64,000 bases of DNA from Leucoraja erinacea (lineage: Eukaryota), in the NCBI RefSeq assembly GCF_028641065.1, contig NC_073404.1, positions 22,692,001 through 22,756,000 on the forward strand, written 5' to 3'. Shown here piece by piece: positions 480-64,000 of the stretch (the stretch's first letter is position 1; the number at the start of each line of letters is the position of its first letter). The notes under the pieces were generated by a model. It searched no databases, was not told where the DNA came from, and saw only the letters and a program-made list of their open reading frames with translations. A program made the position numbers and the translations under genes.

Positions 480-701
480 GACCGGGCGCTAGTCTCTGGG
501 GGAAGTCTTCCATTAATTGCAGACTGCAGCGCTTTGCACCAAAGATCCTGCTCTGCTATAGGATCTTTGCTTTGCACCGGTCGCTCTGCTGGAGCGGCGA
601 TCCTCGGACCGCCGGAGGAGGCAATCGCAGCACATTTGGATCCTGCAATTGGAGGTGAATGTCAGGCGGGCGGCGTGACGCAGCGCATCCCGGGGGTAAG
701 T
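480..701 (+). promoter_or_regulatory. PSPH: Probable PSPH CpG-rich promoter and non-coding first exon (donor GG|GTAAGT at 696)
   Basis: Local CpG enrichment and a strong donor; the first coding exon has its own acceptor, so an upstream exon is required. Confidence 0.55.
540..569. mobile_element. 30-bp TIR-only element CAAAGATCCT...AGGATCTTTG with 8-bp TSD ctttgcac
   Basis: TSD at 532-539 and 570-577; 10-bp terminal inverted repeats. Confidence 0.8.
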
Positions 702-2755: not shown

Positions 2756-3506
2756 TTACAGAGTCACCAGTTTTTGTCATCATTTTCAAGTCCTAGTTGT
2801 TGTGAGTGCAGGGTTCTTGACCTGACCATGAAGGCCTGTTTGAGGTTTGTGTTGTGTAGTGTTCAACAGCCCAATGGTTGTTGGAAATAAGCTATTTTTG
2901 AACCTGGTGATCATGGTTTTCAGATTCCTATTCCTGCCTCCTCTCCAGCCCTACAAAAGGAGACTTGTTACAATCAAGCACTTTGATCTTCCCTGAATGT
3001 GGTCTTTTTGTGGCTACTTCCTCAATTGCCAAGGCCCAAAGCTCTTGAATAATTCTTCAACTCTCTGCCTTCTTTAAGAAACTCTGCTAAATTCTCCTTT
3101 GCTTATAGACATCCGTTTTCTTTGATGTTTCTGGGTGATGGGGGGAGTGAGTGTGTTACTTAAATACTTAAATATTCATGGCACTGTATGAAGTAAATTA
3201 GACAAACTAACCAAAGATTACCGAATGTTGATGAATGTTGTCAGCTTCACAGAGTGTGCTGAATCTTGGTGACTGCTGGTGGCATTCCTTCTTAGATAAA
3301 GCGCCGATGCCACCCTGGATGTGACAGCTTTGATCACATCCATAGCCACATTCTGCCTCATGTCATGGGCAGCAAACAACCAAGTCTAGGAGACACTGGT
3401 TGACTAGAGATATTGAAGCTCTGGTCACAAAAAAGAAGAAGACATACGTCAGGTTTAAGCAGCTGTGATCAAACAAATCCCTTGACGAATATAAGATGTG
3501 TCAGAG

Positions 3507-3617
3507 CAGTGGCGGACTGGCCAGGGTGTCAGCTTGCCCGATGGCAAGTGGGCCCCTGATGAAGTGGGCCCCCTTTGTCTCATGGCAACCAATATTTTTG
3601 GACCCAGTCCGCCACTG
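3507..3617. mobile_element. hAT-type MITE, TIR CAGTGGCGGACTGG, 8-bp TSD tgtcagag
   Basis: 14-bp TIRs; TSD at 3499-3506 and 3618-3625. Confidence 0.85.
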
Positions 3618-4029
3618 TGTCAGAGTACACTGAAGTTGGAAATCAGGGAGGGGGGGGGGGGCAAAGAGAAGATAGGAGATGGATTGAATTGAATACTTAA
3701 TTGTCATATGGGCACCTCCCCCCATTCCACGCTGGGTCGTCCCTCACAGTGCCCCCCCATCCCCCCAGGCAGGCCCCCATTGTCTATTATTCTACCACCT
3801 CGCCTCCCTCCCGGCGGCCAGATTCAGATTCCCTCCCAGGGTTCTCTGGACCCCATCCAGAGAACCCTGGTCGATGGAGCCCGCGGCCAGTCACTGAGTC
3901 GATGGCTGTGGCTGGGGTCAGCTCCACGGAGGCAGCACTAGTGGAGAGGTCGATGCAGCGATTGTCGACTGACGGAGGAGGAGAGACACGTGCAGGACGC
4001 CACTGCCATGGGAACAATAAAGGACCCGG

Positions 4030-4227: not shown

Positions 4228-4586
4228 ATAAAAAAAACTTTCAGTATTTAATAGACTGAATTTGGATGTGATTCAATGGAGAATGGAATGGAAAGTGGGG
4301 CAGCTTATCCTTATTAAAACAAAGGTTACGGGGAGTAAGCAAGAGAGTGGGGTTGAGAGGGAAAAATAGATCATCCATGATCGAATGGTGGAGCAGACAC
4401 GATGGGCCGAATGGCTTAATGCTGCCCCTATGTCTTAAGGTCTTATGGACATGGGTTTCTTTGTTGAATGTTCAGTAGTAAGTATATGTGCGGGTATGGG
4501 ACAATTATCTTCCAATTCACTTTGCCTTTCCCATTGTATGCTCTGCAATAATTTAATTTTGTTTCCAGAGGAACACTAGTACCAAA

Positions 4587-4726
4587 ATGGCTACAGCCGT
4601 TGAGACAAAAGCTATCTTGCGGTGTGCTGATGCAGTTTGCTTTGATGTAGACAGCACAGTAATAAAAGAAGAAGGAATTGACGAGTTGGCAAAGTTTTGT
4701 GGAGTCGGGGATGCTGTGGCAGAAAT
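4587..4726 (+). CDS. PSPH: PSPH coding exon 1 (MATAVETKAILRCADAVCFDVDSTVIKEEGIDELAKFCGVGDAVAEM)
   Basis: Acceptor ttccag ends at 4568, ATG at 4587, donor gtaagt at 4727. Confidence 0.95.
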
Positions 4727-21484: not shown

Positions 21485-24400
21485 CTGTAGAGACAAAAAC
21501 ACACATGTAACTCATGCATATATTCAAAATCATGCAATTTCCTTGATACATTGGAATATCAAAATGCAAACATTACAATGTGACAATTGTTTTATTAATC
21601 ATTTAAAAAAAATGTCAGATTTAAATATTTTTAATTTATATTCAGAAAGGAAACATTCAACAGATAATGCAAAAATGTGGAAATGCAAACATTTTCCTCA
21701 AAGTATCAACTACATTAATTCAAAACCACCCAATACTAACATTGCACACACAGTTTTGTTCAGCATTTTTATTTTATACTATTATGCTTCATTTAGCATT
21801 GTGAATATAGAAAATGTATTTGCTAATAAAAGTATGCACTTGGAGACTTATGCCCAATGACTCGTTAAGAGAATTAGGTCACTAGAGCACGAGAGACAAA
21901 ATTCCACTTTGCTGCTGACTCTATAACATTTGATTCGTGTATTCTTGCAATTACTCTCGCCAAATGTTTACTGTGCTGATTAGTCACAATCATGAGAAGT
22001 AGTCATGTCGGTAACCTGTATTTTTTTCCCTCACATATTAAGAACTAATGAACCGCAAAATATATCAACAAAATTTAAGATGTACTTTCTTCTGATATTA
22101 ATTTCACACACAAAGCAAGTCAGGTAAAACAGCTATGAAAGAACGGTGCAAAGTGAAAATGTATTCCATCTGTTATTACAGATAGCCTTGACATTTCCGC
22201 AAAGCACAAAGTGTAACAGAGATAATTAAAAAACTCAGTAATGCAAAGACTTGTTTATTTTTTTCACAAGAAATCCATGGGGTTTATTTTCCTGAATTTC
22301 TGTTCCGAACAGGGCCAACAAACAGAAGGCCAATATTGGTAATATGTTGCAATTTTATCAGGAAACAATAAGCAACAAAGAGCAATTGATAAATTTTTAG
22401 AGTATGTAGGGAAAGAAAGTGATGATGTATACAAGGGTAAATATTTAGCGATGGCATGATAGAATGAGAGAACGTTTAATGAAACACACAGGACCCTAAG
22501 AGGAAGGTTATGTTAAACCTTTATAAAGTACTCATTAAGCCAGAACTGGAGTACTGCATCCAAATTTGGCTGTTACACCTTAAGAATAATGTGTGTGAAA
22601 TGATTTCGTAGAATTCAGTTACAAGGTTAGACAGAGTAGTTCTGGTTGTTTAGAAGGGTTTAGAGATACAACATGGAAACACGTCCTTTGTCCAACTTCT
22701 GGACCTTTTATTGTCCACGCCGACCACTGATCACCCGTTCACACGTTATCCCACTTTTTCATCCATTCTCTACACTTGGGGCATGTTATAACAGTTAATT
22801 TATCTACAAATCTGCATATGGTTGGGATGTGGGATGAAACCAACAAGGTCACAGGAAGAACCTCTGTGCAATCTCTGCACAGGCTTCATCCGAATGTACC
22901 CGGGTCTCTGGTGCTATTGATCAATGCAGCTCTTCTTCAAGTTTAAAGAATTTTCAGAACACTAATTATGTACAGAAAAATACCTGTGTAATATACACAT
23001 TCATCCCAGCCAGGTTTTTGCCATGCTGAATTTCGTGTTTCATCTCTTGACTGCAAGTCTTTGTAAGCTTTATAAAGCACAAGGCAGAACAAAATAAAGT
23101 TAGTTTTATATTCCTTATTTATTATCTTTAATATAAATAACCCATCAAAATCATGTTATAATCCTACTATAACATTATGTATTATTTACTTATTATAAGT
23201 TGTCATTTTCACGTGGTCAATAATATTATTTTCTTTTAAAACACATCTCTTAGTAAACTTAAGTGCATTTGCAATTCTAACTGCTACCACAGATAACCAC
23301 AGTATAATGAGAAACCACATTATATATACTGATAAATCATTTTTAAGTATATGGGTGGTCACGGAAGCTTTTGGTACAATGGTTTTCATTAGTCAGGGTA
23401 TTGGGTATAGAAGTTGGAATGTTACAGTTATACAAGACGTTGGCGAGGAAACACACAGAGTACTGTATTCAGTTTTGACCACCCTGCTGTAAGAAGGATG
23501 TCATTAAACTGGAAAGAGTGCATAGAAGATTTATGAGGATGTTGCCAGGACTTGAGGGGCTGATCTTATAAGGAGAGGGTGGGCAGGCTAGGAGTGCCAG
23601 AAGCTGAGGAGTGTTCTTATAGAGGTATATCAAATCATGAGGGGAATGGATAAGGCTACAGTGTACAATGTCTTTGACCCAGAGTACTGGAATCAAAAAC
23701 AAAAGGACATATTGTTTAAAGTGAGAGGGGAAAGATTTGATACGAAACTGAGTGGTAACTTTTTCAGAGAGAAACCAGGAACTGCATATGCTGGTGTACA
23801 TAAAAGGACACAGAGTGCTGAAGCAACTCTGCAGGTCAGGCAGCATTCCTGGGAAACATGGTCAGGTAATGTTTTGGGTCTGGCAATTTTCAATCAGAGG
23901 GTGGTGAGTATATGGACCAAGCTGCTAGAAGAGGTAGTTGAGGCAGATGCTATAACAGCACATAGAAGACACTTGACAGGTACATGGATAAGAAAGGTTG
24001 AGGAATGTGCATCTGGCTTAGATGGGATATCTTGGTCGGCATGCATGAGTTGTGCAAAAGTGCCTGTTTCTGTGCTGTATGACTTTAGGAGACTTTAGAA
24101 TGTTTTGCTAATTAATCCAGTCGTGATTAACATTGCTATCTGTTCAGTAACTTGTACTGTTTACAGAGGCAGGAAAATGAAGTATTTCATTATAACGGAT
24201 TACGTTGTTTCAGAACATAGAATTGAAACTGAAATTACTGTGAAGAGCTGTCATTTGAGTCATGTTGCCTGCCTCCCTTTTCTCTATTGAACATCATTTG
24301 TGAAGACATTAGCTTCATGCTTGTAGTTTTGGAAATACAGTGGTCTCTGATTCCTTGCACAAGTAGGAATTTATCACGTGGGAAGCAACAATTTGTAGAG

Positions 24401-27400
24401 GAGGTTCACAGCAGTTAATTCCTTTATCCTTTTACCACAGATGTGTCCATTGAAAGCTTCATTAATCCTAAATAATATTAGTATATTGCCATCTAGTTAA
24501 CTTACAATGGAATTCTTTCATATTGTTGCTGTGAGCTGAACACCGTTTTTTTTTAAAGCACATGCTGGCCAAATGCAGCAGCAGTACTTAATCTTTTGTT
24601 TCATTTTAAATTTAGGAGCAATTTGTTGAATCAATAAAGCAAGGAGTGGTATAGAGACAAAGGTACTAAAAAATTGATGAGTTACAGGAAATCAACAAAG
24701 AATGACAAACATTATTTATTATGCATGCCATTTTCCATCTTTATAGCTCAAATGACTTTGCCTCTGACAATAGTTCATCAGCTTCTGAAACATTCATGCA
24801 TGCCAGTTACTTAATAATCATCCCCATGAATTCCTGGTTGGCCTCCATCATTCCACTCTGCATGTTATTCAAAACTGATGTTTAGTTTGGAGATACAACA
24901 CGGAGTCTGCACCACCCAGTGATCCCCGTACATTAACACAAGCCTACACACACTAGGGACAATTTACACTTATTCCAAGTATACAAACCCAAGCCAATTA
25001 ACCTACAAACCTGTACGTCTTTGGAGTGTGAGAGGAAACTGAAGATCTCTGAGAAAACCCACGCGGTCACGGGAAGAACGTAGAAACTCCAGACAGACAG
25101 CACACATAGTCGGGATCGAACTCGGGTCTTCAGCGTTGCAAGCTCTGCAAGGCAGCAACGCTACTGCTGCACTACCGTGATGCCTGTGCCCTGATTACCA
25201 CCATGCCCGACTGACGAATCGCCTATGCCTGCTAATCTACACTGGCATGAAGCAATGATTTAATTTAAAAATTCTCATCATTTTCCAATCTCTCCACAAA
25301 TGAATCCCTCTTTATGTCAAATTTCCTCTATCCCTGCAACCATTAGGTTGCTACACTAACCTAATTCTCATCTTGTATCGTACAAATTTAACTGCTCGGA
25401 GGGACCAGACTGTCCCCAACTCTGCTGCAGCTGGCGGGGACGTTTGCCGGGTGGTCGCTGGGGTGGTGGGGGGGGGGGGGGGGGGGGGGAGGGTGCCAGT
25501 GCAGCGTGGTCAGTGACTCTGGGTAGGGGGTGGGACCAGACTGCCCCAACTCTGCTGCAGCTGACGGGGACGTTGCCGGGTTTTCGTCCCAGTGTGTCCC
25601 GCTGCCCGGAGCCGCGGCCAACCCAAAGCCCGTCACAGTGCAGCCGCACAGGGGAAGACGGAGCGGAGGGCGGCCGTGGCCGGATAGCGCTGACCCAGAG
25701 GGGGAGAGCGGGGGCTGTCCCGATGAATGCACTCCTTCGGCCGCTTACACCTTGGTGCTCGGGTTCAGAGCAAAGATACTAGAGCATTTGGTTCAGAGTG
25801 CTCAGCCACCCTCCACAATTATTTACAGCGCAAAAATTTGACCATTTCGGCGGTTTTTAACAGGTAAGAAAGTACGCATTTCGTGTGTTAACAGTGTATG
25901 CCGGAGACTGCCATGTCCTCTGGAAGAATCGAGCTGCTCCCCCTTTGACCCGATGACCTTACATATTTTCTCAGGGTTCGTCTTAGAAAAATTTCAGTAT
26001 TGTGCACATAATTCATTGTGGCACAGTACTGAAATTTTTCTATCATCTTGAAATTTGTTGCTGTTGTTAAAGATTGTACGTGAACATATATTGTTACTTT
26101 TCTTGGTGAGGATCATGAAATTGCAACATCAAAAATTAGTTGCATTCTGGCAGCAATTCTATTGAGAATATTTTATAAACAAAATTAGGATTTAGAGCAT
26201 ATAACATATTGTTCAATTAAAACAGAATTTCCAACTGCTGGAGGTCTAAATTGAAAACTGTAACAGTAACACTGATAAAAGTGAATATTGATAACGAGAA
26301 AGGGAAGCGAAGGAAGTAACTTGAAGAGTCATAGAAAATGGTGCATTAACATATTAAAAGAGAAAAAAAAAGCAAGCAATGGAAAAACAAAGACAGATAA
26401 AATCTTATCAAAATGTTCAAGAGCCTTCAGGTTTACCACCAAGATGAACCCTGAGAAAATGTGTTCATTGAGACCATTACACAATTAAATTGCAGCATGG
26501 AATTAGGTCAGTATGAACAGATTAGGCATGATGTTTGAACACATGCTTTAATGAATACAAAACAGACTGTGTGGGAGGAATCAAAACAGCTGGCAAAGAA
26601 TTGCTATTTTAGTTCCGAGGTTGTACATCATCCAAAATATTTTCGCCTAGTCCCGCACATTGCCAGTACTATTCCAAACACTATTCTAAAGACATTATAG
26701 CATTTATTCTGATTATTATAGCATTTCCTATTTCATTTGAAAGGTACTTTGTAACTCCAGTCATTGGTAAATACATTTTACCAACTAAATCTCAATGCTG
26801 TAATCATTCAGTTTTATATTTTCGAAGCAAAACTTTAGAATTTTATTTTTTCCTTCTTTATTAAGATTATGTTCAATAAGCATTAGGACCCATAATTGAC
26901 CAGAAAAAGTGCACAGAAATATGAATGCATAACATTATTTACCCCATAGATGATGCACTGTATATAGTTCACCAATTTGTGAGAAGAAGCCACCAACTGC
27001 TTCATTGTTCTCCTGTCGAAACCGAATGGCTCGAGCCCTATGAAAAATTAAATGAATCAGAAATTAATAATTAAAAATAGAGATATTTCAAATTTGATGC
27101 AATTATATTAGAACTGTGAATGATTCTGTTACAATTTTGTTGAAAATGACCTCTGAAAGTTGAAGTTTGATTCTCAAAATAATAATTATGCTCCGTCTTC
27201 CTGACATTTCAATGGTGGAGAGTGATTATACATATCTCAATTTGTTCAACATGCAGTTTTCATTATCTAGTTTACTTTTGCACAAATTAAAGTTTGATTC
27301 CTTGACACTAATAAGACTTTACACAAACACTTACAGTGCTTTAAATTCTGAATGGAGACTGAAAAATTCAATGACTTTTCATTCAACCAAAATCCTCAAA

Positions 27401-39400: not shown

Positions 39401-42400
39401 AATGAGAAATAGAAGCACTCCAGATAATCAAATTATGATTCTTTAACCAACAAAAACAGAAAAGATTGGACATTTTCTTAATCTTACCAAAGTTGGTTGT
39501 AAGCCTCCAGGGATTCTGGTTTTACACTGTGAACTGGAAAGAAAATATTTTAAATTATTTTAAATTATTCTTGAAATATAATAAATACACCCCTCAGCAG
39601 ATTAGAAAACACTTTGAATACTTACATTGAATTTTGTATAGGCTGCTTGTTTCCTTTTTAGCTAGCAAATTTGAATGAGCATCCTTACGTGGATCCACCT
39701 TTCTGACAAACAGTGATTTAAACCAGCTATCCTCCCTGTTGTTGAATGATGTAGCAGACAATGCCCTGCACAAAAACATGAATAATTACATTCCATGCTT
39801 TCTCCACCCAGAACAGTATGCCTTGCATGACTAAATACATCACCACTTATTCATAATCCTTTGGCACATCTTTGAACATGTTACTTTGTTCAATCGGTAT
39901 TCAATATTCTTGTTCTCTATTGCTGACCCAAATGCAGTGAAAACTTGCTCAATTAAGTATGGTCAACTCTTTCCTTCCCTAGCCTCTGTACTGTGGTTTC
40001 AGTCAAGGTGATTTTCACCTCAATCTCACCTCATCTTGCGCTTTATCACATGTTGGCTGCCATTCTATTCTCTGTGATTAACACACCCATATCCATGGTC
40101 ACCTACTTGGCTTTGCCATACCCTATGACTTCAGTACTTCTGTCACCTAAACATCACAGCCATTTCTGATGTATCTTCCCCACAAACCCTTTCCAATTTG
40201 TTTCTCAGCCTGCTCCTAAAGCCATACCACTCCCAATTGATTTGAAGTACACGTTTTAAAAATCTCAGCTGTTATGCCTTTGGTCCTCCATTCCCCCACA
40301 TCATATCTGAACAGATAACCAGAACTTTGTATTCCTTTTTTAATGCCCGAGGGCCCATTGTAATTATATTTTTTTCTCCCCTGATGCAGTCTTCATGTCC
40401 GGTCTCTTAAGTCCTAGAGTTGCAAATCAGGTTGGATATGCAAGACAACTAGTTTTGCAACTCAATGTCAGGTTTGATGAATCCCATAAAGTACCGTTAC
40501 GTTTTGACCTCAACTGCTCACTTCTTTGTTCAACAATGAATACACCAGAAGTGTGGCTTTTTTGCTGGCTTGCAAATTAGCTTCTTAAATTGCTCTTCCA
40601 TTCTGCTATTTGCAATCCTCCAATTCTGCACTTTCCTTTTTTCCCTTCACCCAAACAAATGGTGCATCTCAATCACCTAGTCAATCCATGTTCTAACAAC
40701 TCACATCTTTCTCTAGCCTTGTTCTAATCTTCCATCATGTCCATACAAAGACCTCATGTCATAAGATTCCCCTTCTTCGCCCTATGTTTACCAAATTGCT
40801 ACCCATCCAGTTTCTTTGCCCGAGCTTCATGTTAGTTAATAATGTTAGTAATGCTCTCCCATCAGGTGCTGTTCCCCCTCCCTCACTCCTTAACATATAG
40901 TCGTCATCCCTCCGTATAGAAAACACAATTTCAGTTCTTTCCAAATACAATCCATCTTCTCCACTGGAGAAAGTTTTCACATTGTCATTGCTGCAATACA
41001 GTTCCCATCAAAACCAGCCGTGACATCATAGGATTGCAAAAAATATTCATTTGTGTATGCTGACAGTGTGTTTTACCCATCTACCAATACCCTTGACCTA
41101 TTCAATGTCTCCAGTCATCAGTATATTTGCCGGACATTAAACACCATACTAGCACGCTTCCTTCAACTAATATAAAGCCCAAAGCCACGCATTCCTCCAG
41201 CAATTTTCTTAAAATAAACCTCAATGTCTAGGAACGTGGAGTAATATCTAATTTGTGCTTCAGAGCAGATATCCGTCATAAAAGTGAATATTTTAATTTC
41301 TGTAATACCATCCAATTCCACCGCTGCCTCTGCTCATCCTGTCATGTCTTTGACTATTGATTTGACTATTCCAAAGCATTCCTGGTCAGCTCTTTTCATT
41401 AAATCCTTGTCAAGGTTCTGTTCTTAAGACGCTGACACATACTTTCCATTTGCCCATCACTTTGTGCTTGATGAGTTACATTAATTCCCAAATCAGTTTT
41501 AAAATTCTCATCCACATTTTCAAATCTCTCTGTGGCCTCCACTCCCTGTTTTTTTCTTGTCCTATAATCTTTAGATATCGGTAATTCTTTCATTGGTAAC
41601 ACTTTCTTATTTGATCCTCTAAGACCCTATGCAATCTCCCAACCCTAAATCTACCAGTTTTATTTTTAAATCTCTTTCATTCTTTACAATCATTCCACCA
41701 GGGTTTTAGACATCTATCCCAATGTGTGGCTATATTTAAATGTGTTTTGTTAATGCTCCTGTGCTGAACAAAAGATACGGTTTTATGTGACAATGTCCTG
41801 GAAAGGTGGGAACGAAGGAAATAGGTAGGGAACTGAAATCAATGTAAAATAAGTGATTAAAATTCAGAAAAAAACAAATGCAGGCTAGGATACGTGGCAT
41901 TTGATGTGGTCATGTGTAAAGCTGTGTTATACAGGACACAAGAAGAATTTAAGGGGTACGAGTAGATGAACAATTTAATCAAATAGAACACCAGGAAAGA
42001 TAACTTGCACAAGGTACTGGTCTAAAAGCATGTCAATAAAAGACATGAAAGATTCACAGGATTATTTTGACGAACAGGAGGGAGGTCGGCCTAGATCTAA
42101 GTCAATAAATATCCTTTAATTCAGTGAAAATGGTCACCTGGTCAATTACCATAATGTTATTACTTCTGTGCATTTCTGAAATCATAACAGTGATTGTACC
42201 TCTAGGATCTTTGGTCAGCACTGTAAGCGCTTTGTGACATCAAAACCATGAAAAGGGGCGTGTAAATGCATATCTTTAAGATTCAACACCGAAAATAGAC
42301 AATATACGACTTAAAGGTTATCTGAGATTTAATGTTTACAATTTTCCTATTGTCTAATCCATCAAACATCTTCACTGCAGATGTAAAACACCGTTTAAAT

Positions 42401-42960
42401 AATTTCCTTGCTGATCAGAAACACACTGAAATGTTTCAACTGAAGGACTGGCATAATGATTGAATAGATGGAAGAACATAAACTTAGCGCACATTTGTGC
42501 AATTATAACGGATGCAACTACTGCAGATAATGACCTTGGCGAAATAAAATCCTCAAATGTGAGTCTCGTAAAAGAAACTTGGAAATAAGGCTTCAAACCA
42601 GTCAATTGTAGATGGTTTGGTTCGTTGTTTTAAACTGCTTGTTAATTTAACGTTCTTTTAGCCGATAACCTGTTGATGGACGGCATTTTATTCTGAACAA
42701 AGAAGCAGCACAGCGGCGCACCTGTCAGTTGACAGAAGGGAAAGGGCCTGCCGACAAACTTTACCTCAGTTTGCGCGCTCCGGCAACGCTCAGCCACAGG
42801 CGGCAAAACAACGGCGGCTGTCAGCCTTTTCGTGCACTGACCTGGTCATGGTTAACGTGGTGATGCCAGCATCGAGAGGAAGGGCGCAGTGTTCGCTTCT
42901 AACCCGGGCTGTCGCCCTCCTGGCACCGGTTGCAAGGCTCAGCATAACTCTGGCCGCCAT
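21420..42960 (-). CDS. NIPSNAP2: NipSnap homolog 2 (GBAS), complement join(42960-42842,39765-39626,39533-39488,36968-36874,36283-36213,34521-34381,33344-33313,27037-26943,23067-22984,21484-21420), 295 aa
   Basis: [61 protein letters not shown] and [11 protein letters not shown]; all junctions GT-AG and in frame (888 nt); neighbours PSPH and MRPS17 as in other vertebrates. Confidence 0.96.
22984..23067 (-). CDS. NIPSNAP2: NIPSNAP2 exon 9
   Basis: [28 protein letters not shown]. Confidence 0.95.
23350..24090 (+). mobile_element. Degenerate CR1 3' fragment interrupted by a Penelope-derived short element (~23765-23885)
   Basis: CR1 ORF2 and 3'UTR-like sequence. Confidence 0.7.
24880..25180 (-). 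mobile_element. tRNA-derived SINE (HE1-like)
   Basis: On the - strand: B-box gttcgatcc, body shared with 43320 and 44070, (ctaaa) tail. Confidence 0.75.
25771..25790. mobile_element. 20-bp CAAAGATACTAGAGC...TTTG element with 8-bp TSD gttcagag
   Basis: TSD at 25763-25770 and 25791-25798; left end matches the family at 53443. Confidence 0.7.
26943..27037 (-). CDS. NIPSNAP2: NIPSNAP2 exon 8
   Basis: [31 protein letters not shown]. Confidence 0.95.
28761..29177 (-). mobile_element. Non-autonomous RTE-type retroelement (5'UTR plus 3' end), 11-bp TSD aattctactat
   Basis: TSD at 28750-28760 and 29178-29188; aag tail; RTE-like 5'UTR. Confidence 0.7.
31110..31510 (+). mobile_element. CR1 3' fragment
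   Basis: ORF 31206-31391 [11 protein letters not shown]...WNKLPEEV. Confidence 0.8.
33313..33344 (-). CDS. NIPSNAP2: NIPSNAP2 exon 7
   Basis: [11 protein letters not shown], 32 nt, ccag/gtgagt flanks. Confidence 0.93.
34381..34521 (-). CDS. NIPSNAP2: NIPSNAP2 exon 6
   Basis: [47 protein letters not shown]. Confidence 0.95.
34633..34860 (+). repeat. 40-bp tandem repeat, ~5.7 diverged units
   Basis: Units start at 34633, 34673, 34713, 34753, 34793 and 34833 (core aggcctggctctgag). Confidence 0.85.
34865..35545 (+). mobile_element. Degenerate CR1 LINE: ORF1 SGNH-esterase fragment joined to an ORF2 fragment
   Basis: [14 protein letters not shown] and HVGTNNI motifs across frameshifts. Confidence 0.75.
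36213..36283 (-). CDS. NIPSNAP2: NIPSNAP2 exon 5
   Basis: [23 protein letters not shown]. Confidence 0.95.
36874..36968 (-). CDS. NIPSNAP2: NIPSNAP2 exon 4
   Basis: [31 protein letters not shown]. Confidence 0.95.
37429..37707 (+). mobile_element. 5'-truncated poly(A)-tailed retroelement (L1/Tx1-like 3'UTR), TSD aaagtttttattt
   Basis: AATAAA followed by an A tail; TSD at 37416-37428 and 37705-37717. Confidence 0.6.
38240..38690 (-). mobile_element. CR1 3' fragment
   Basis: Same family as 9430-9870 and 5740-5960. Confidence 0.8.
39040..39387. mobile_element. Tc1/mariner terminal fragment (same family as 4030-4227)
   Basis: Shares ~200 bp; ends ...acactg|TA. Confidence 0.75.
39488..39533 (-). 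CDS. NIPSNAP2: NIPSNAP2 exon 3
   Basis: [15 protein letters not shown], 46 nt, AG/GT flanks. Confidence 0.93.
39626..39765 (-). CDS. NIPSNAP2: NIPSNAP2 exon 2
   Basis: [46 protein letters not shown]. Confidence 0.95.
42842..42960 (-). CDS. NIPSNAP2: NIPSNAP2 exon 1 ([15 protein letters not shown]..., probable mitochondrial targeting peptide)
   Basis: caagATGGCG start context, donor AG|GTCAGT, phase 2 matches exon 2. Confidence 0.85.
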
Positions 42961-43040
42961 CTTGCTGTGGAGGTGACATTCACCCCCGCAACGGCAGCGT
43001 GTGCGCATGCGCCTCCAGGCGTGTGGGGGCAGGGCGCGGA
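42953..43040 (-). promoter_or_regulatory. NIPSNAP2: NIPSNAP2 CpG promoter with NRF1-type palindrome TGCGCATGCGC (43002-43012) and YY1-type CAAGATGGCGGC over the ATG
   Basis: Direct motif matches within a CpG-rich segment. Confidence 0.7.
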
Positions 43041-50234: not shown

Positions 50235-50430
50235 CCACCCATTCGGCCTCAATCCGCGTGTTCCTACTCGACTTGGATCGAGGAGCGGCGTAACTCGAGC
50301 ATGCGCAGTGGGCGCTCCCGCCTGGTTGCCCCGCAGTGAGGCGTCGGGAACCACCGCCTCTGCTGGCCGTCTGTGAAATTACAGCTCCGGCCCAATAAGC
50401 GAGTTCGGTATTCCGACTGCGCATGCCTAG
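50235..50430 (-). promoter_or_regulatory. MRPS17: Probable MRPS17 promoter and non-coding first exon (donor GG|GTGAGT at 50234), with NRF1-like GCATGCGCA motifs at 50299 and 50418
   Basis: CpG island ~49980-50430 and a strong donor; the coding exon has its own acceptor at 47411. Confidence 0.65.
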
Positions 50431-50487
50431 GTCAAAGGTCATTATGCATAAATAGCCCTGGAGAGCAGTGAACCTTCATTTCTTCTA

Positions 50488-50946
50488 AGAAATCTTCTAA
50501 GATCTGTCAGCAGATCTATATCGGTGAGACCAAGCGGAGGTTGGGCGATCGTTTCGCCGAACACCTCCGCTCGGTCCGCAATAACCTAGCTGACCTCCCG
50601 GTGGCTCAGCACTTCAACTCCCCCTCCCACTCCGCCTCTGACCTCTCTGTCCTGGGTCTCCTCCATGGCCACAGCGAGCAGCACCGGAAATTGGAGGAAA
50701 TATTCCGTTTGGGTAGTCTTATGAACATCGTCTCCCAATTTGTTGTCCTTGCTGTCTTCTTCCTCCCTTGCTGGCTCCCCTGCTGACTCCTCCCACTCTC
50801 CAGCCTTCCGGCCCCCTCCTACAGCCTTGTCCCCCCAAAGATGCCCCACCCCTGATCAGTCTGAAGAAGGGTTTCGGCCCGAAACGTTGCCTCCTTCGCT
50901 CCATAGATGCTGCTGCACCCGCTGAGTTTCTCCAGCTTTTCTGTGT
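50488..50946 (+). mobile_element. Penelope-like element 3' fragment (GIY-YIG endonuclease) plus a pLTR with a hammerhead motif, TSD-like aaccttcatttcttcta
   Basis: IYIGETKRRLGDRFAEHLRSV...VAQHFNSPSH; direct repeat at 50471-50487 and 50947-50963. Confidence 0.85.
50855..50895 (+). ncRNA. Minimal type-I hammerhead ribozyme motif of a Penelope pLTR
   Basis: CUGAAGA-A-GGGU(UUCG)GCCC-GAAACGUU with a palindromic ACGU stem III. Confidence 0.6.
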
Positions 50947-53442
50947 AACCTTCATTTCTTCTATTTTTTTCAGCTTTGATTCTTCTAGGTAAGAAAATGC
51001 TGCTTTCAAACTATGAAATAGTTGTATTTATTGTTCCTTTGTTGCCGCTTCTTCTCCGTGCTGGCTGTGACAGACGACACCAGCGGCCCCAGGCCTACAG
51101 CCAGTTACAGAAAGAAGCGCCAACCCCAGCCCAACTCCCGCCGGGCCAACCAACAGGCCCGGACCGACAACACCAGCGGCCACAAGCCCACAGCCAGTGC
51201 GGAGAAGAAGCGCCAATTCCAGCCCAGCCCCCCCGACGGGCCAGGGACTGGCAGCGGCCGACAGCCCTGGTGCCGGCGAAAACCGAGCACCAGCCATACA
51301 CACAGTGCTGCAGCAACTTGGCCTCCTTAGTTTGAAAGCAGTATTTTCTTACCTAGAAGAATCAAAGCTGGAAAAAAAGAAATTAAGGTCCACTGCTTCA
51401 CTACACTGCTTTCCAGGGCTGTTTATGCATAGTGACCTTTAACCTGGGTTTGTGCAGTCGGAATACCGAACTCGCTTATTACACTCTACACGCAGCCTCC
51501 TGTACTCTACAATATTTGGGGTTAGTCTGTTTAGTTTCATTTTTTGTCACGTGCACCGAAGTACAGTGAAAAGCTTTTGTTGGGTGCTAACCAGCCAGCA
51601 GAAAGACAATACATGATTACAATCGAGCCATTCACTGTGTAAGGGAATAACGTTTAGTGCAGGATAAAAAATATAATCTATTGTCAGTATATCATTATGT
51701 ATCATATTATATTAATGTATTATGTTGATCATGTATTATCTTTCCACTGACTAGTTAACACGTAACAAAAGGTTTACACTGTACCTTGGTACATGTGCGA
51801 TACGATACAATAGAACTTTATTTAGAAGGTTACACAGATTCACATCCCTGGGATGCAGACCATGAGGCCCTGGGTTTTTATCAGCCTTCAGTCGCATTAG
51901 TCTACCCAACACCATTTCCTGCCTAATGTGAATTTCTTTCAGTTCCTCCGTCACCCTAGATCCTCTGGCCACGAGTACTTCAGGGAGATTTTTTGTGTCT
52001 TCCTTTGTGAAGACGGATCCAAAGTACCTGTTCAACTATCAGACTTGATGGCTGAATGGCATTATTCTGCTCTTAGAACCTATGTCACAAAGTGCTGGAG
52101 TAACTCAGTGAGTCAGGCAGCATCTCTGGAGAACATGGATAGGTGATGTTTCAATCTGAAACAGGGTCCCGACCCGAAACATCACTTCTTCATGTTAACC
52201 AGAGATGCTACCTGACCTGCTGAGTTACTCCAACACTCTGTGGTCTTTTTCGTTTTACAATAGATCTTCTGGAACAGCACATAGAGTATTGCCATGTTCT
52301 GGCACCATCTAGCAACTTCCAAGCCTTTGAAAGGTCTATTCTTGGCCCATGGAGATATACATTTTCTCATGTTCTCACTTTTAGGCCTGGTGTCCTGGTG
52401 GCACTGGATCAATGAAGTGGGAGTCAGTCTCGTCCAGCGCAATGCTATCGGCTCCTTTCAATGCTGTTTTATGCCACTGGCTGCGCTTGATCCACTGGCT
52501 CATCTGGCTAAATTTAAATTGGAGACGAAAGATGGGGTTGATTTTGGAGAAGGAAATACAAGCAAAGATCTGACAGAAGATAGACACAAAGTGCTGGAGT
52601 AACTCAGTGGGTCAGACAGCATCTCTTGAGAAAAAGGACGGATGACATTTCGGGTCAGGACCCTTCTTCAAACACTGACATTGATCTGACAGTGTGGGTA
52701 CAATCTGAAAGAGCATGGAGAACGGATGAATGAATAGCAAGGGGCTGTCTGAAGCATGGGAGACTGGGAGAAGGAGAATAGTTATTTAAAATTAACAAAA
52801 CAGGAAAAGCATCAACTAGAAATGAGAATTCAAAAATTTTACATATTTCAATGAAATTGTTGAACATATTAAATGTGAAAGGCTACAAAATGTCCAGTGA
52901 AAGATGAAATGTTATTAATTGAGCCTATATTATGCTTTTTTTTTAAAGCAAATGTTGAAGCAGGATGCAGAATTAAGGTGGCAGGCAAATGGGGAAAAAA
53001 AACAGACTAGCATAATACATTACAACCATATTTTTATGGCTTTTTGAGCTTTCTGTAGAGCTATGAGGGTGGAAGATATAACATGTTTCTGTGGGTTAGT
53101 GAATAATATTTCATTCAATAATATTGCCTTTCGCGGGGGTGTGTTAAGGAGATGTGTTTTGGTACAGAAATGTTGCGGTGGGTATGTTTCCAGTTTGTGT
53201 GAATGCATTTGGGTGGGTTTTGAATGGAGTTCTTTGTTTTTTAAGGGGGGGGGGGGGAGGGGGGGGATTGCTGGGAGCTGTTATGTGGAGGGGAAAGTTC
53301 GTTTGAATGGGAGGGGAAAGGTTGTTTGAATGGGAGGGGAATGGGGAAAGTTTGTTTGAGTGGGAGGGGAAAGGGAGAAGTTTGCGTGGAGGGGGGCGGA
53401 GTTTTTGCGCGGTGCCGCGTCTGATGAAGGGAGGGTTTGTGC

Positions 53443-53467
53443 CAAAGATACTCCTCTAGTATCTTTG
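53443..53467. mobile_element. 25-bp TIR-only element CAAAGATACT...AGTATCTTTG, 8-bp TSD gtttgtgc
   Basis: TSD at 53435-53442 and 53468-53475. Confidence 0.85.
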
Positions 53468-53583
53468 GTTTGTGCGAAGTTTTGCTGCGAGTTGCTTCAT
53501 CCTCACTGGAGGGCGCGCTCCGCCATTCGGTGTTCCGTTGTGCAGCGGTGGCTCTCCCTCCCCTTTACCCAGCTAGCAGTGTC

Positions 53584-53614
53584 CAAAGATTATAGAGCTC
53601 CTCTATAATCTTTG
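53584..53614. mobile_element. 31-bp TIR-only element CAAAGATTATAGAG-ctc-CTCTATAATCTTTG, 8-bp TSD gcagtgtc
   Basis: TSD at 53576-53583 and 53615-53622; perfect 14-bp arms. Confidence 0.87.
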
Positions 53615-55636
53615 GCAGTGTCCGCTTCCCGGCTGTTTTAACCGACGTATGTCCCTGTTAGTGGGGTTGCTGTGCAGTTCATCGTCGCCTTAAGGCCGGT
53701 GCTGGTGGCGTATCGTGCGGACTCGCTGCAACTCCAGTCCGGGGCTCAACTTTGGCTGGGCCTCCATCGACGGTGAGTCCTCTGAACACAACACAAACTA
53801 TACTTAAATCAACGAAACAACCATTAATCAATATCTGCGGATTACTTGGGAAAGTTACTGTTAGTTTCCGTGTGAAAGCACTGCATTACAACAGTTAGGC
53901 CTCCAGAACGTTGAATCCTTTTAGAGGAATGTTGTTATTTTTAATGTTTATTTTGTTATCGCCAATGTTAATTCCACTCGTGGAAATGTATCTCCAATTA
54001 GAGAATCAGTCTGAAAAAGGGTCTCGACCCGAAACGTCACTCATTCTCTCGAGAAATGCTGCCGGACCCGCTGAGTTACTCCAGTTTTTTCTGTCTATTT
54101 TTAATGATTAGAAAGGTGATCGGTGCATATTTTCCACCATTAACGTTTTAGTCTCATTGCTTCTTTGGTTTGTGTTGCCAAATAAATTACCGAGTAAGAG
54201 GCAGCTAACCCTTCAAACTTGAAGTAAATCCACTTTAAAGACAAATAATGTCTGCTCTAGTTTACCTTCGCACCAGTCCATACATTACAAGTAATCAATG
54301 AAGGCCTTGTTTATCTGCACACAGGACGCTGGCAAAAAAACCCATTTCAAAGAGAAAGTACTGTAATACCACGGTTTTTCCACAGTCACACCACAGTACA
54401 TAATTGAATGATGACTATTAAGTTCATTTTAATTTAATTGATCCACAATAAAAAATCATAAAATCACCCATTTAAATATATCTAGTTCTCAATTGACTAA
54501 TTTAATGTTATCTGTGAATGCAGGTGTGTATTCTATGCTCTTGAAAGGTCTTCTAGTCTTTGTTACTCTTTATTGATATCACCCCAGATGTTATCCTTTT
54601 AAATATCTTTGTCCCCACCCCTTGTAAATCTTTCAAATTTTGAAGTAATATGTTGGATTTGCTTGACTCTTTTTCTTAGCCAATTCGAAAACTGATTTCT
54701 AGAGTCACTCACTATTCAAACTTATGACAAGGCAATTATGTTTGCTATTCTGAGTCAGTTGTATCTTCGACTATTGATTGCCACATTAAATACTGTATTT
54801 TGACTACAGTCCTCTGACAACACAGTTTAGTTTGATGCGGGATTTGTGTTTTACTGCTTTTCATAATATAATTCAACATTTCCTGCCTTTTAAATCAGTC
54901 TTATGAAGCCAAAAAGAATGACTTGATTTCAAAGGCTGCTTGACTTGTTGTGTGCCTCAAACATGGAACACAATTCATTCTTAGACCCCCAAGAATCTTT
55001 CAACTTTGTTCTTGGACATGAAAATCATGAGGTTTCCCACATCAGCTTGATCGCTTTGATATTTGCCAGCTTGTGCTTTTGGAGCTTATTTTGTTTAAAA
55101 CCCCAAAGCAATTACATAATATTCTAGACCATTGTTCTAATGCTTTATCAATATTGTTCATGAGTCGAAATGGGTTTTGGGATTAGCATTTAATTTTAAG
55201 GAAAAATATGAACAGAATAATTACGTTTTCAAATTGCTGCGTTCCATGTTGGGTTTTCCATTTGAGCAGGATTGTTTCTGACCATCTTTCACCCCATCTC
55301 TTCTTGACTTGAGCATTATTTGTTTTCCAAGTGTTTCACCTCGGGTTTCTGGAGTGGAACCGTTTCCATTCAATTGAATTGAATTGAATTGAATACCTTT
55401 ATTGTCATTTCAATGTTTATTGTTAATTCAATACCTAATTACATGATACTTTGTTTTAAGCAATGAAATGGAGGGACCCTACTCCATTCATTGGGTTGTG
55501 GAAAGCATCATGTGATGAGATTTGAATTCACTTTATTAACAGGAATCTGGAATCGTCCATTGAATCTGGACAGGGACTTTGAATGAACAGATAATTTGCA
55601 AAGAGTTAACTTGGATAATTTTCATAATTGTTCTAT

Positions 55637-58928: not shown

Positions 58929-59018
58929 ATGTCGATAATGGGGTTAAAGAAAAAACAACCTAAAACCTTTAAAGTTAAGGTTATTACCATGGATGCAGAA
59001 ATGGAATTCAGTTGTGAG
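58929..59018 (+). CDS. Merlin/NF2-like (nf2b-type) first coding exon [30 protein letters not shown]
   Basis: KQPKTF and TMDAEMEF merlin N-terminal FERM signature; donor gtaaga. Confidence 0.9.
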
Positions 59019-61744
59019 GTAAGAAAGAGTATTTAGATATTTTTTTGACATTTAGTGTCCTTGGATTGTTCCAAGTTTTAGATGTAAGTGCTGTTATCTA
59101 GGCAAATTCAACCACTGAATAGTGTAAAGTAATATACAGTGGGAAATCAGATGTTGGATCTACTACTCTGTTGCAGGCAGTTGTAATTGTATGTAGTTGA
59201 ATGTGAGTCACTTGATTTAAGTTGTGAAAAGGTTCTATTTTTTTTTTTTTTCAAATATCGCAAATGAATCTTATGTTTAATGAGATTGTCGAACTCTTGT
59301 TCATTAATTAATCTGAAATATGGCATTTCTGAAATGTTACACTCTTCAATATTGAAGTATAACCCAGAGATAATGCTCACAACCCTGGAGTGGTGCTTGA
59401 ACCAATAGCCATCTCATTGAGATGAGATGTTGCCAAGTGCAGTTGCAAGAGTTTGGTCAAATGGTCTCCTGAGGAGCATAACTGGTCTTCAGATTTACAA
59501 AAAAAAAATTAATATAATAGACAATAGTTGCAGGAGTAGGCCATTTGCCCCTTCGAGCCAGCCCCGCCATTCAATGTGATCATGGCCTCCCCAATCGACC
59601 CCGCCAGCTCCGCCATTCCCCAATCTGATCATGGCTGATCATCCCTGTCAAAATGCACTGGATGGTTCCTTAGCTTGAATTGTCATTGTAATAATGAATT
59701 GTAAAATTGAATGCTCTCATTTTGAAGATTAAATACGTTTTTTCATTCACTTGTGTTAGGTTAGTTAAATTGGTTCCTGCCTTCTCCCCATATCCCCTGA
59801 CTCTGCTATTTTTTAAGAGCCCTATCTAGCTCTCTCTTGAAAGCATCCAGAGACCAAATAAGATTTATGGTTGTGCAGTAATAATGAAATATCTGTCAAA
59901 ATGCACTGGATGGTTCCTTAGCTTGAATTGTCATTGTAATAATGAATTGTAAAAGTCTCTCCCTGCACTGACCCAATCGTCTCTCCGTTTTGAAGAGCCT
60001 CCAACAGGAATACGGGGACTCTTGCCGACTTTTCAGTTCAGCGCTGCTGTGTTAGCTGTTAGTTAAATTGGATCCAATAGGTCTGTGGACGGGCGGCACC
60101 GGGAGCCCGCGGCTCCCTGGAGGGAGATCAGGGGAAAAAGTTGCGGGGTATTTTAGCTCCTTCTGGAATTTTGCGATGTCACGCCGGGGGCTCTTCACCC
60201 GGTGTAGACCACCGTGGCTTTAATCCGCGGTACAATTCGCCAGCCGGGGGCTTTGACTTGACTCTATGAATGTGCAGTGGAGAGATAGTTTATTTGGCCT
60301 TCCATCACAGCGATGTGATGGATGTTTATGTAAATTATGTTGTGTCTTGGGTCTATGTGTTTGTAATGTATGGCTGCAGAAACGGCATTTCGTTTGGACC
60401 TCAAGGGGTCCAAATGACAATTAAATGTATCTTGTATCTTGTATGTGACAGTAAAGTACCAATGAACCATTAAACTCTTGCCAGCCTAAAAATATCCTCA
60501 AGTTCTTTGAGAATACTTCTCATCCTAGTTTAAGTTTTGTTTTGGGCACTTCAATAACAAAAGGTATCATCATTTATTTACGAACGTGTCCTTTTCTAAT
60601 AAAATCAATTTGGCTGCTGCATTATGAGCCTTAACATATTCAATACTTTTTTATGTTCCCCTATCATTCCTGAAGGCTGCATGATTCATGCTGGTGTATT
60701 GTTCATATATTTGCAATGTTTAATAATATTTTCCTATGATGAGTGCCAAGCTATTTCAATGCTGGGATTGTTTATATTGGCCAAGACTAGTTTTGGTCTT
60801 ACTGATCATCCAAACATTTTTTCCAGCAGAGTTGATAAATACGAGTTGCTATTGGATAGTGTACCCTTGATTTGGTGTAACACGGGTTAGTAATGAAGAT
60901 CGCCAGCATATTGGGCATCAGAGTAGCCCTTTTTAGAGATAGCATTGCTCACCCCAGTTAGGGAAAGGACAGGAGAAGATGTTTCCAATGTTGCTCTCCT
61001 AACAATAATTAACTGGCCAGCAGACTATGGATGGCAGTTGGCCCCTTTCAGTGGTTGAAACAAGACATTAAACCAAATTGTTGTATGTGGAACTTATGTA
61101 TGTGAAGAACAGCCCTCGTAGCCAGCATGCTGTAGGATCGGTACTGCTGCTCTTGGTGAGATATAATATGCTGATGAAGAAACACTGGGCTACACCTTTT
61201 TCTGGAAAGACAAATCTGAAAATGAAGATGTGCCACCTACGCAACATTCCTTTAATAGCTTCCCAAGTTACTTGTCGGTGTCAACAGATGTGTCATGAAG
61301 CGTCGTTTCCTCATCACCTATTCCTGACACGTTAGCATCGTCAGTCCCTCTGTTCCTACCCTGACCAGCAGTGATGATGACAAGGAGGCATTTTGTGAGA
61401 ACCTTCACTTTCTGGTGAAGTCAACTCCTGTAAGCAATAAGCCCATATTACTTGGCGATTTCAGTGCTAGTGTTGGGAGTGATTGTAAGATGTGAGGAGT
61501 TTGCATGAGCTTGGAAAGGCAAACAGCAACAGGCCTCTCCTGTTGACTGTGTGTGTGTGTGGAGAATGATCCTGCCATCAACATCTGGGAACTTGAATCC
61601 CTTGTTCACCTGAGCTATTGTGGGTGCTTTAGCCATTTTATCTTTTCATAATGTCACCCAAAACTATATTGTCCAGGCCAAGAAATGCATGAACTATTAA
61701 TATTGAAGAGCAAATTGAGATATGTGTTTTATTTTGTATTGCAG

Positions 61745-61870
61745 GTGAAGTGGAAAGGAAAAGACCTTTTTGACTTGGTGTGTCGAACAATTGGATTACG
61801 GGAAACCTGGTTCTTTGGACTGCAATTCATTGTAAAAGATACATTTGCATGGTTAAAACCGGAGAAGAGG
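61745..61870 (+). CDS. Merlin/NF2-like second coding exon [42 protein letters not shown]; the gene continues beyond the window
   Basis: Merlin-specific [24 protein letters not shown], 126 nt, gcag/gtttgt flanks. Confidence 0.93.
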
Positions 61871-62517
61871 GTTTGTATCAAGTTTTTATTTGGTTTAAAA
61901 TGAATATTATTTCCAGAAATCAAGAACATTTAGAAATATTATTACATTGAAATGTCTAAAACTGAGGTATCAAGAGCATTGATTGCAATTTTTAAACTTT
62001 TGAATATGTAGATGACTAGATGCTTAAAAATTAATAGTATATTAAAACTTTCATTTTAAAATGGCTGCATTTTGACAAACCTTAGGAAAATTAACTGTAA
62101 GTAGTTATGAATTATAATTTCTAAATATTTGAAATTGTAGTTTATAAATATTTATTACCCAAGTAATAGATTTGAATAGACCAGTTATTTTTATTGAACC
62201 ATGTTTAATACTGGCCAAATAAACACCAGCCGTCAGGTTCTGCAAGCCAGGAGACGATGTAGCTTGAATATTGGTTGCCTTTGCGTCATAAATTGACGAA
62301 CAATTGATAGAGGTAAAATAATTGTGGAAATACAATGAAAACAGAAATGTGTGAAGGATTATTCAGGAGCAGGCAGCATCTATTGAGTATACGGATGTGG
62401 TTAAGTTTGAGTAGTCCAATGATTGCTCCAAACATTTCCATGCTGCTAATGATATATTTTATAGGTCTTCAAAATATCTTTGAAGCGATGTTTTACAAAC
62501 AAACTTAGTAAATAAAG

Positions 62518-64000
62518 TCATAGAAACATAGAAAATAGGTGCAGGAGTAGGCCATTCGGCCCTTCGAACCTGCACCGCCATTCAATATGATCATGGCTGA
62601 TCATCCAACTCGGTATCCTGTACCTGCCTTCTCTCCATACCCCCTGATCCCTTTAGCCACAAGGGCCACATCTAACTCCCTCTTAAATATAGCCAATGAA
62701 CTGGCCTCAACTACCTTATGTGGCAGAGAATTCCAGAGATTCACCACTCTCTGTGTGAAAAATGTTTTCCTCATCTCGGTCCTAAAAGATTTCCCCCTTA
62801 TCCTTAAACTGTGACCCCTTGTTCTGGACTTCCCCAACATCGGGAACAATCTTCCTGCGTCTAGCCAGTCCAACCCCTTAAGAATTTTGTAAGTTTCTAT
62901 AAGATCCCCCCTCAATCTTCTAAATTCTAGCGAGTACAAGCCAAGTCTATCCAGTCTTTCTTCATATGAAAGTCCTGACATCCCAGGAATCAGTCTGGTG
63001 AACCTTCTCTGTACTCCCTCTATGGCAAGAATGTGTTTCCTCAGATTAGGAGACCAAAACTGTACGCAATACTCCAGGTGTGGTCTCACCAAGACCCTGT
63101 ACAACTGCAGTAGAATCTCCCTGCTCCTATACTCAAATCCTTTTGCTATGAATGCTAACATACCATTCGCTTTCTTCACTGCCTGCTGCACCTGCATGCC
63201 TACTTTCAATGACTGGTGTACCATGACACCCAGGTCTCGTTGCATCTCCCCCTTTCCAAATTGGCCACCATTCAGATAATAGTCTACTTTCCTGTTTTTG
63301 CCACCAAAGTGGATAACCTCACATTTATCCACATTATACTGCATCTGCCATGCATTTGCCCACTCACCCAGCCTATCCAAGTCACCTTGCAGCCTCCTAG
63401 CATCCTCCTCACAGCTAACACTGCCCCCCAGCTTCGTGTAATCCGCAAACTTGGAGATGTTGCATTCAATTCCCTCGTCCAAATCATTAATATATATTGT
63501 AAATAGCTGGGGTCCCAGCACTGAGCCTTGCGGTACCCCACTAGTCACTGCCTGCCATTGTGAAAAGGACGCGTTTACTCCTACTCTTTGCTTCCTGTCT
63601 GCCAGCCAGTTCTCTATCCACATCAATACTGAACCCCCAATACCGTGTGCTTTAAGTTTGTCTACTAATCTCTTATGTGGGACCTTGTCGAAAGCCTTCT
63701 GAAAGTCCAGATATAACACATCCACTGGTTCTCCCTTATCCACTCTACTAGTTACATCATCGAGAAATTCTATAAGATTCATCAGACATGATTTTCCTTT
63801 CATAAATCCATGCTGACTTTGTCCAATGATTTCACCACTTTCCAAATGTGCTGCTATCCCATCTTTAATAACTGATTCTGGCAGTTTCCCCACTACCGAT
63901 GTTAGACTAACTGGTCTGAAATTCCCCGTTTTCTCTCTCCCTCTTAAAAAGTGGGGTTACATTAGCTCCCCTCCAATCCTCAGGAACTATTCCAGAATCT
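62518..64000 (-). mobile_element. Young CR1 LINE (ORF2 RT domain 62601-63893, 3'UTR, (gaaacata)n tail) in an NF2-like intron; runs off the window
   Basis: YLDFQKAFDKVPH, GVPQGSVLGP, FADY and [15 protein letters not shown] in a 430-aa open frame. Confidence 0.95.

Follow-up and report, generated by a model that had tools for sequence, protein, structure and literature searches.

A candidate P-type transposon excision scar in the first exon of skate PSPH

Introduction

How did a 30-nt palindrome, framed by two identical 8-bp words, come to lie at the 5′ end of the skate PSPH gene? Transposons that leave part of their own ends behind offer one answer. In the fly, P transposase makes cuts staggered by 17 nt, produces 8-bp target-site duplications and prefers promoters (PMC7776569), and its excision leaves 17-nt 3′ tails of terminal repeat on the donor DNA (PMC2895639, PMC5466332). 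Joining of these tails gives a duplication, two stubs in a row and the second duplication, with microhomology, blunt or insertion junctions (PMC2895639 Table 1; PMC5466332 Tables 1–2). hAT and MULE excision, by comparison, hairpins the flank and releases the complete element end (PMC5499845), so that direct footprints of these elements lack element-end sequence. The mechanism is already known from flies, and active P-like elements are already known in zebrafish (PMC10983969); the P-type staggered cut itself has been characterised for the fly enzyme, and the available text on zebrafish THAP9 gives no cut position (PMC10983969).

Here we analyse a 64-kb stretch of skate DNA (the window), in which the structure at 532–577 (copy F1) is accompanied by three related copies, F2 to F4. 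The feature is real, and its parent was most likely a P-like family, either uncatalogued or not yet linked to these ends, that targeted the CpG-island gene starts of the skate.

Results

Structure of the element and its relatives

F1 consists of an exact 8-bp direct repeat, CTTTGCAC, enclosing a 30-nt palindrome at 540–569, CAAAGATCCTGCTCTGCTATAGGATCTTTG, which contains a perfect 10-nt inverted repeat (Table 1). In this respect the original prediction, a 30-bp element made of terminal repeats and nothing else inside an 8-bp target-site duplication, holds. When the whole window was scanned for exact 8-mer repeats enclosing 12–60 nt with an inverted repeat of at least 10 nt, three cases emerged, at 532, 53435 and 53576, all beginning with CAAAGAT and with arms of 10 (F1), 10 (F3) and 14 nt (F4). 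When the window was simulated 200 times with a local order-3 Markov model, arms of at least 10 nt never arose, and arms of at least 8 nt arose once. As a control, a degenerate form of the palindrome was sought in viral contigs, where it occurs at no fewer than 120 loci; among the 81 distinct ones listed, none has a flanking duplication of 7/8 or better, the best reaching 6/8. Chance is thereby ruled out as the source of the 532–577 structure, and three of the four copies are established as non-chance, the exception being F2 when judged by its inverted repeat.

Table 1. Features of the PSPH locus and of related copies in the window
Feature	Position	Strand	Evidence
Left copy of the 8-bp target-site duplication, CTTTGCAC	532–539	.	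Sequence itself, repeat scan
Left terminal-repeat stub, 10 nt	540–549	+	Repeat scan, end comparison
Right terminal-repeat stub: 17 nt (553–569) plus a 3-nt insertion, or at least 20 nt (550–569)	550–569	-	End comparison, contig depth spike, X3 contig match from 550
Right copy of the 8-bp target-site duplication	570–577	.	Sequence itself, repeat scan
PSPH first exon (5′ leader) containing the scar; 499 reflects the end of a contig and not a mapped start; GT donor at 696	499–695	+	X15 contig joined to window 4569, PSPH identity
F2: GTTCAGAG duplication around 20 nt (14 + 2 + 4, the outer figures being the left and right stubs); in a CpG island flanked by NIPSNAP2 exons	25763–25798	.	Repeat scan, simulations, end comparison
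F3: GTTTGTGC duplication around 25 nt (10 + 17, 2-nt microhomology)	53435–53475	.	Repeat scan, end comparison
F4: GCAGTGTC duplication around 31 nt (14 + 17, blunt join)	53576–53622	.	Repeat scan, end comparison
Possible one-sided stub: 15-nt end related to the F1 and F3 ends, then GTCAGCAC	42199–42221	-	End comparison

The three similar scars that had been proposed elsewhere in the window do exist: their inserts measure 20, 25 and 31 nt, share related ends, lie each within a separate 8-bp duplication and differ at their junctions. The right ends of the copies are three related 17-mers, identical at 13–15 of 17 positions and all ending in AG. The inverted repeat of F2 measures just 4 nt, a length reached in 92 of 200 simulations, so the case for F2 rests on its first 14 nt, which equal the end of F3. 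A diverged relative of the high-copy repeat at 24–249 starts right at the F2 scar (25798–25929).

Comparison of the four copies changes how the F1 palindrome is parsed. The 10-nt "loop", first taken to be a spacer, is not one; since all four copies decompose into stubs, it is the inner part of the right-hand end. The 30-mer is thus asymmetric, a 10-nt left stub followed by a right stub of 17–20 nt, both from one terminal repeat, and it decomposes as 10 + 3 + 17 nt, or as 10 + 20 nt if the terminal repeat is longer. All four two-sided copies in the window measure 20–31 nt with arms of at most 17–20 nt, and none is longer. The strict 17-nt overhang first proposed suits F2, F3 and F4, whose arms do not exceed 17 nt, whereas F1 conforms only if a 3-nt insertion is allowed and otherwise has an arm of at least 20 nt, so that F1 may imply a deeper cut. 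Because the terminal repeat was derived from the scars themselves, the figure of 17 nt is partly circular and should be taken as suggestive; the last two bases of the long F3 arm are the microhomology itself, and the F4 arm could be longer.

Every copy starts with CAAAGAT, and hence with the predicted CA, a feature that is not specific to P elements. A search for distant partners of the CAAAGAT ends in the window gave none that combined a related end with a duplication of at least 7/8; three looser long-range pairings have unrelated partner ends. The possible one-sided stub at 42199–42221 lies outside CpG islands, about 460 bp from what we take to be the first exon of NIPSNAP2 (near 42677–42973). 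Its GTCAGCAC fits GT....AC, and no left stub, partner end or second copy of GTCAGCAC was found nearby.

CpG islands and target sequence

All four copies lie in CpG islands (GC at least 0.5, CpG observed/expected at least 0.6), a category that covers 4.3% of window positions; this bears out the expected preference for promoter regions, with the qualifications that F3 and F4 share one island, leaving three independent islands, and that the test was made after the fact. Around the copies, CpG observed/expected is 0.79–1.00 and GC 0.51–0.55. Downstream of the island that holds F3 and F4 come a splice donor at 53773 and a FERM-domain gene. Of the four genes whose 5′ ends lie within the window, two carry such scars there. 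The exons of the FERM-domain gene, which to us resembles NF2/merlin, occupy 58940–61872, with F3 and F4 at its likely 5′ end; Pfam places a NIPSNAP exon at 22946–23155.

The duplications also resemble the fly P target core, although in part: at the outer positions 11 of 16 match where 4.0 are expected (p = 0.00015), at the inner four positions 5 of 16 match (p = 0.42), and the outer flanks of the 14-bp motif match in none of four. A preference for GT....AC is also found in some hAT elements, and for this reason the outer-core match does not separate P from those hAT elements.

This ambiguity bears on a rival account, that the copies are extreme internal deletions of a hAT or another element with 8-bp duplications, brought about by abortive sister-chromatid gap repair or end-to-end slippage; they would then be transposon relics without a P-type cut. 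Such duplications are typical of hAT (PMC5499845), the target signal amounts to GT....AC, and the F1 right arm may exceed 17 nt. Other 8-bp families have moreover been active here, as an intact 111-bp element at 3499–3625 attests. The lengths of the copies speak against this account, since abortive repair should, we reason, spread lengths widely, yet all four two-sided copies fall within 20–31 nt. Direct hAT cleavage would leave the flank without end sequence (PMC5499845), whereas the skate copies retain two intact duplications around an insert of shared end sequence. We regard internal deletion as unlikely, though it is the strongest of the alternatives.

The 111-bp element itself has a perfect 14-bp inverted repeat starting with CAG and an 8-bp duplication, is the sole copy of these ends in the window and is, by its resemblance, presumably a hAT-like MITE. 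Two further mobile elements were seen: one at 50394–51480 with 77-nt inverted ends (90%) and a nested element with 50-nt inverted ends, beside the 5′ end of MRPS17, and an uninterrupted LINE reverse-transcriptase frame of 451 residues at 62601–63956 (minus strand).

Repeat family and orthologous site

Contigs from four sequencing runs were aligned to positions 1–730: one DNA run and one run guessed to be RNA from organism A, and two runs from organism B. At position 551 the contig depths summed to 7500, 3014 and 8207 against 16.7, 19.3 and 26.3 in the adjacent unique flank, ratios of 449, 156 and 312, which shows that in both organisms the 30-mer is part of a repeat family. We rejected a reading of contig depth as copy number, since it reports repeat-family membership and nothing more; contig breakpoints at 540 and 567 were likewise taken to show nothing biological beyond the repetition of the 30-mer. 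Variants shorter by one base at 551 or 554 reach 25–35 times flank depth. One contig (X3) has a match that starts at 550, a weak hint that the F1-type end is at least 20 nt long.

A second locus was recovered in an X15 contig of depth about 3.9, which spans exactly 537–569, in agreement with the binned depths, and is flanked by a different perfect 8-bp duplication, ATCACCAC; among the differences listed for this contig, none separates its 30-mer from that of the window. The 8-bp duplication is thus seen in 4/4 window copies and at one further locus. These data leave a local replication or repair accident (tandem duplication with template switching), or chance without any transposon, extremely improbable. 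The 8-mer of 550–557, GCTCTGCT, does recur at 583–590, as a locally templated insertion would give, but the same ends are shared by four unrelated sites, the second locus has a different flank, depth spikes over the 30-mer and the simulations gave 0/200. The recurrence, which lies 13 nt past the element, is itself probably chance, given the different flank of the second locus.

The same contigs raise the alternative that the 30-mer is a mobile, repeat-only micro-element moved by a transposase in trans, its copies being insertions and not scars. An identical unit stands at the second locus within its own duplication, unrelated flanks are attached to the stretch at 536 in five X1 contigs, depth over 540–550 is at most 0.74–0.79 of that at 551, and the multi-copy shorter variants would also suit an amplified mini-element. 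The four window copies, on the other side, represent four junctions and three end variants; a test for the homogeneity expected of a MITE family found four different units in the window, yet the F1 unit recurs at the second locus. Identical junctions also recur in fly repair, where one was recovered in 14 isolates (PMC2895639). The terminal repeat is not enough for fly P, which also depends on internal transposase-binding sites (PMC7776569), and P-derived MITEs retain 114–198 bp of their ends (PMC1562414). Given this heterogeneity and the internal sites on which P-type mobility depends, and with depth being no copy number, a mobile 30-bp unit seems unlikely to us.

The orthologous site is filled in 4/4 runs, from two organisms that are very close (7 differences in 322 flank bases): the B contigs 246–567 and 540–730 overlap, the X1 contig 405–567 reaches into the site and the X15 contig that covers 499–695 bridges it. 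No contig joint skipping the 38 bp was found in these four runs of two close organisms. Protein searches with translated extensions for an outgroup PSPH leader returned P0003 alone, one weak 33% match, or nothing; among the 15 of 23 cluster members listed, the Rhinoraja PSPH extension is unrelated to the skate first exon.

Position within PSPH

The coding exon at 4587 belongs to phosphoserine phosphatase. Over 46 residues it is identical to PSPH of Leucoraja erinacea and differs at 3 positions from that of Amblyraja radiata, which assigns the window to little skate or a very close relative; the top named matches include rays (91–93%) and sharks (85–87%). The X15 contig covers 499–695 with one difference and then joins window position 4569, just before the PSPH start codon; that this contig is RNA is a guess, none of the 24 runs listed with this stretch being recorded as RNA. 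The original placement in the PSPH promoter is accordingly half right: the site is in the promoter CpG island, but inside the first exon (5′ leader) and not upstream of PSPH.

Joined to 4569, window positions 480–695 are open and in frame with the PSPH coding sequence, and four predicted proteins start at the last three bases of the scar (TTG) and run in frame into PSPH, as would be expected if spliced transcripts include the filled site. The TTG start called by the gene finder is probably a prediction artefact, but may instead mark a non-AUG extension of PSPH. The scar contributes no ATG to the leader. Alone, the 30-mer is predicted to form an 11-pair hairpin (−12.9 kcal/mol, z = −4.75 against shuffles), as any palindrome would, and the whole leader (499–694) folds no better than shuffles (z = −0.1). 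An Rfam search of positions 1–1300 gave no match for the element.

Two repeats neighbour this exon. A very high-copy repeat at 24–249 (summed depth up to about 8e5) lies just upstream of the PSPH island, and a perfect 84-nt palindrome of repeated sequence lies at 733–903 in PSPH intron 1, with 15 sub-threshold Rfam matches to microRNA families.

Search for the parent element

No transposase was detected by Pfam in 282 peptides of the window (281 open frames of at least 62 aa and the PSPH exon), where the matches were NIPSNAP, Ribosomal_S17 (twice), FERM_N and RVT_1. The exact 20-nt end has 0 matches in viral, metagenome and prokaryote genome contigs. The 17-nt F3/F4 end has at least 120 loci in metagenomes, and among the 80 with full flanks none combines a paired left end with a duplication; matches of this end and of the palindrome in these collections are best read as chance. 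A full-length parent was found neither in the 64-kb window nor in the viral, metagenome and prokaryote collections. The idea of a family of CAAAGAT-ended scars thus survives in part: the repeat family, the second locus with its own duplication and the fly-like anatomy support it, and the longer parent did not turn up in the window or the collections.

Literature searches with the end sequences returned unrelated papers only. In literature that covers few subscription journals we found no description of this family or of natural vertebrate P-type scars; Repbase and Dfam, outside this scope, may hold the parent. Sharks and skates go unmentioned in PMC10824691, the accessible part of the little skate genome paper (PMC10115646) gives no DNA-transposon detail, and that of PMC1592238 contains nothing on footprints.

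Discussion

Whatever its class, the structure at 532–577 is very probably the non-mobile relic of a transposon. Beyond that, we think it probable, from the geometry of the copies, that these are healed donor sites of a P-type transposon with long staggered cuts. As we read their junctions, the four skate copies match the classes seen in fly P donor repair. The putative assignment to the P superfamily draws on scar geometry; the window peptides contained no transposase, and no long element turned up in the window or the collections.

We envision the following sequence of events. A CAAAGAT-ended element would have landed in the open chromatin of the CpG island at the start of PSPH, creating the 8-bp duplication; for this step the argument is strong. 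Excision by its transposase would have followed, the terminal repeats being cut internally with a long stagger, so that both flanks retained a single-stranded 3′ tail of some 17–22 nt of repeat. The junctions suggest that such tails were then joined through short microhomology, bluntly or with a small templated insertion; the product would be a duplication, a left stub, a right stub and the second duplication, and the PSPH site would have grown by 38 bp. In this way three CpG islands within 64 kb appear to have been scarred by at least three end variants (13–15 of 17 nt identical). The healed F1 scar would be inert as a mobile element while adding a predicted hairpin to the PSPH leader.

The identical 30-mer at two loci is compatible with P-type excision because identical junctions recur in P donor repair. 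In the fly table the junction recovered in 14 isolates has short microhomology, and insertion junctions were recovered at most 3 times (PMC2895639); the recurrence of F1 therefore leans, we reason, towards a microhomology join from a 20–22-nt tail. This suggests a wider scenario, which we consider possible but doubtful: a recent P/THAP9-type burst in the skate may have been directed at CpG-island promoters genome-wide, its legacy being thousands of 20–31-nt scars now fixed in promoters and 5′ leaders, with subfamily cut depths of 17 nt (F3/F4 ends) and 20–22 nt (F1 end). The F1 tail, ending in AG, would then pair with the CT that F3 also used, regenerating an identical 30-mer at many loci. Were this so, the skate genome would hold a natural in vivo record of vertebrate P-type transposase cut sites, composed of scars that repeat annotation misses entirely.

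On P-type excision in general, natural scars in a cartilaginous fish would allow the cut depth of vertebrate P-like transposases, their target preference and germline end joining to be read from genome sequence alone. If the window is typical, they are also an unannotated source through which skate promoters and 5′ leaders have acquired 28–39-bp insertions and small hairpins.

Among known systems, the donor products of the Drosophila melanogaster P element come closest, with 8-bp duplications on both sides and two stubs of at most 17 nt whose join shows microhomology, is blunt or holds a small insertion (PMC2895639, PMC5466332); CA-starting ends, promoter preference and a GT....AC target core are shared as well (PMC7776569). 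The skate end sequence nevertheless differs past the first two bases, the F1 arm may reach at least 20 nt and the fly 14-bp motif lacks its outer flanks in the skate. The skate scars, moreover, are natural, apparently fixed and vertebrate, and their family is known from scars alone, whereas the fly products come from laboratory assays. Zebrafish Pdre2/THAP9 offers a vertebrate P-like counterpart with 8-bp duplications, in which Pdre2 is excised by the active THAP9 transposase; Pdre2 differs in having 13-bp terminal repeats and subterminal repeats, and its excision in cells is described as leaving flanking deletions, not fused stubs (PMC10983969). The P-derived MITEs of Anopheles gambiae and BuT5 are likewise non-coding, bounded by terminal repeats and flanked by 8-bp duplications, but they are hundreds of bases long and keep 114–198 bp of parent ends, in contrast to the heterogeneous 20–31-nt skate units (PMC1562414, PMC3698922). 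Finally, hAT (8-bp) and MULE (8–10-bp) duplications resemble those of the skate, while their footprints hold flank sequence from opened hairpins where the skate copies hold element-end sequence (PMC5499845).
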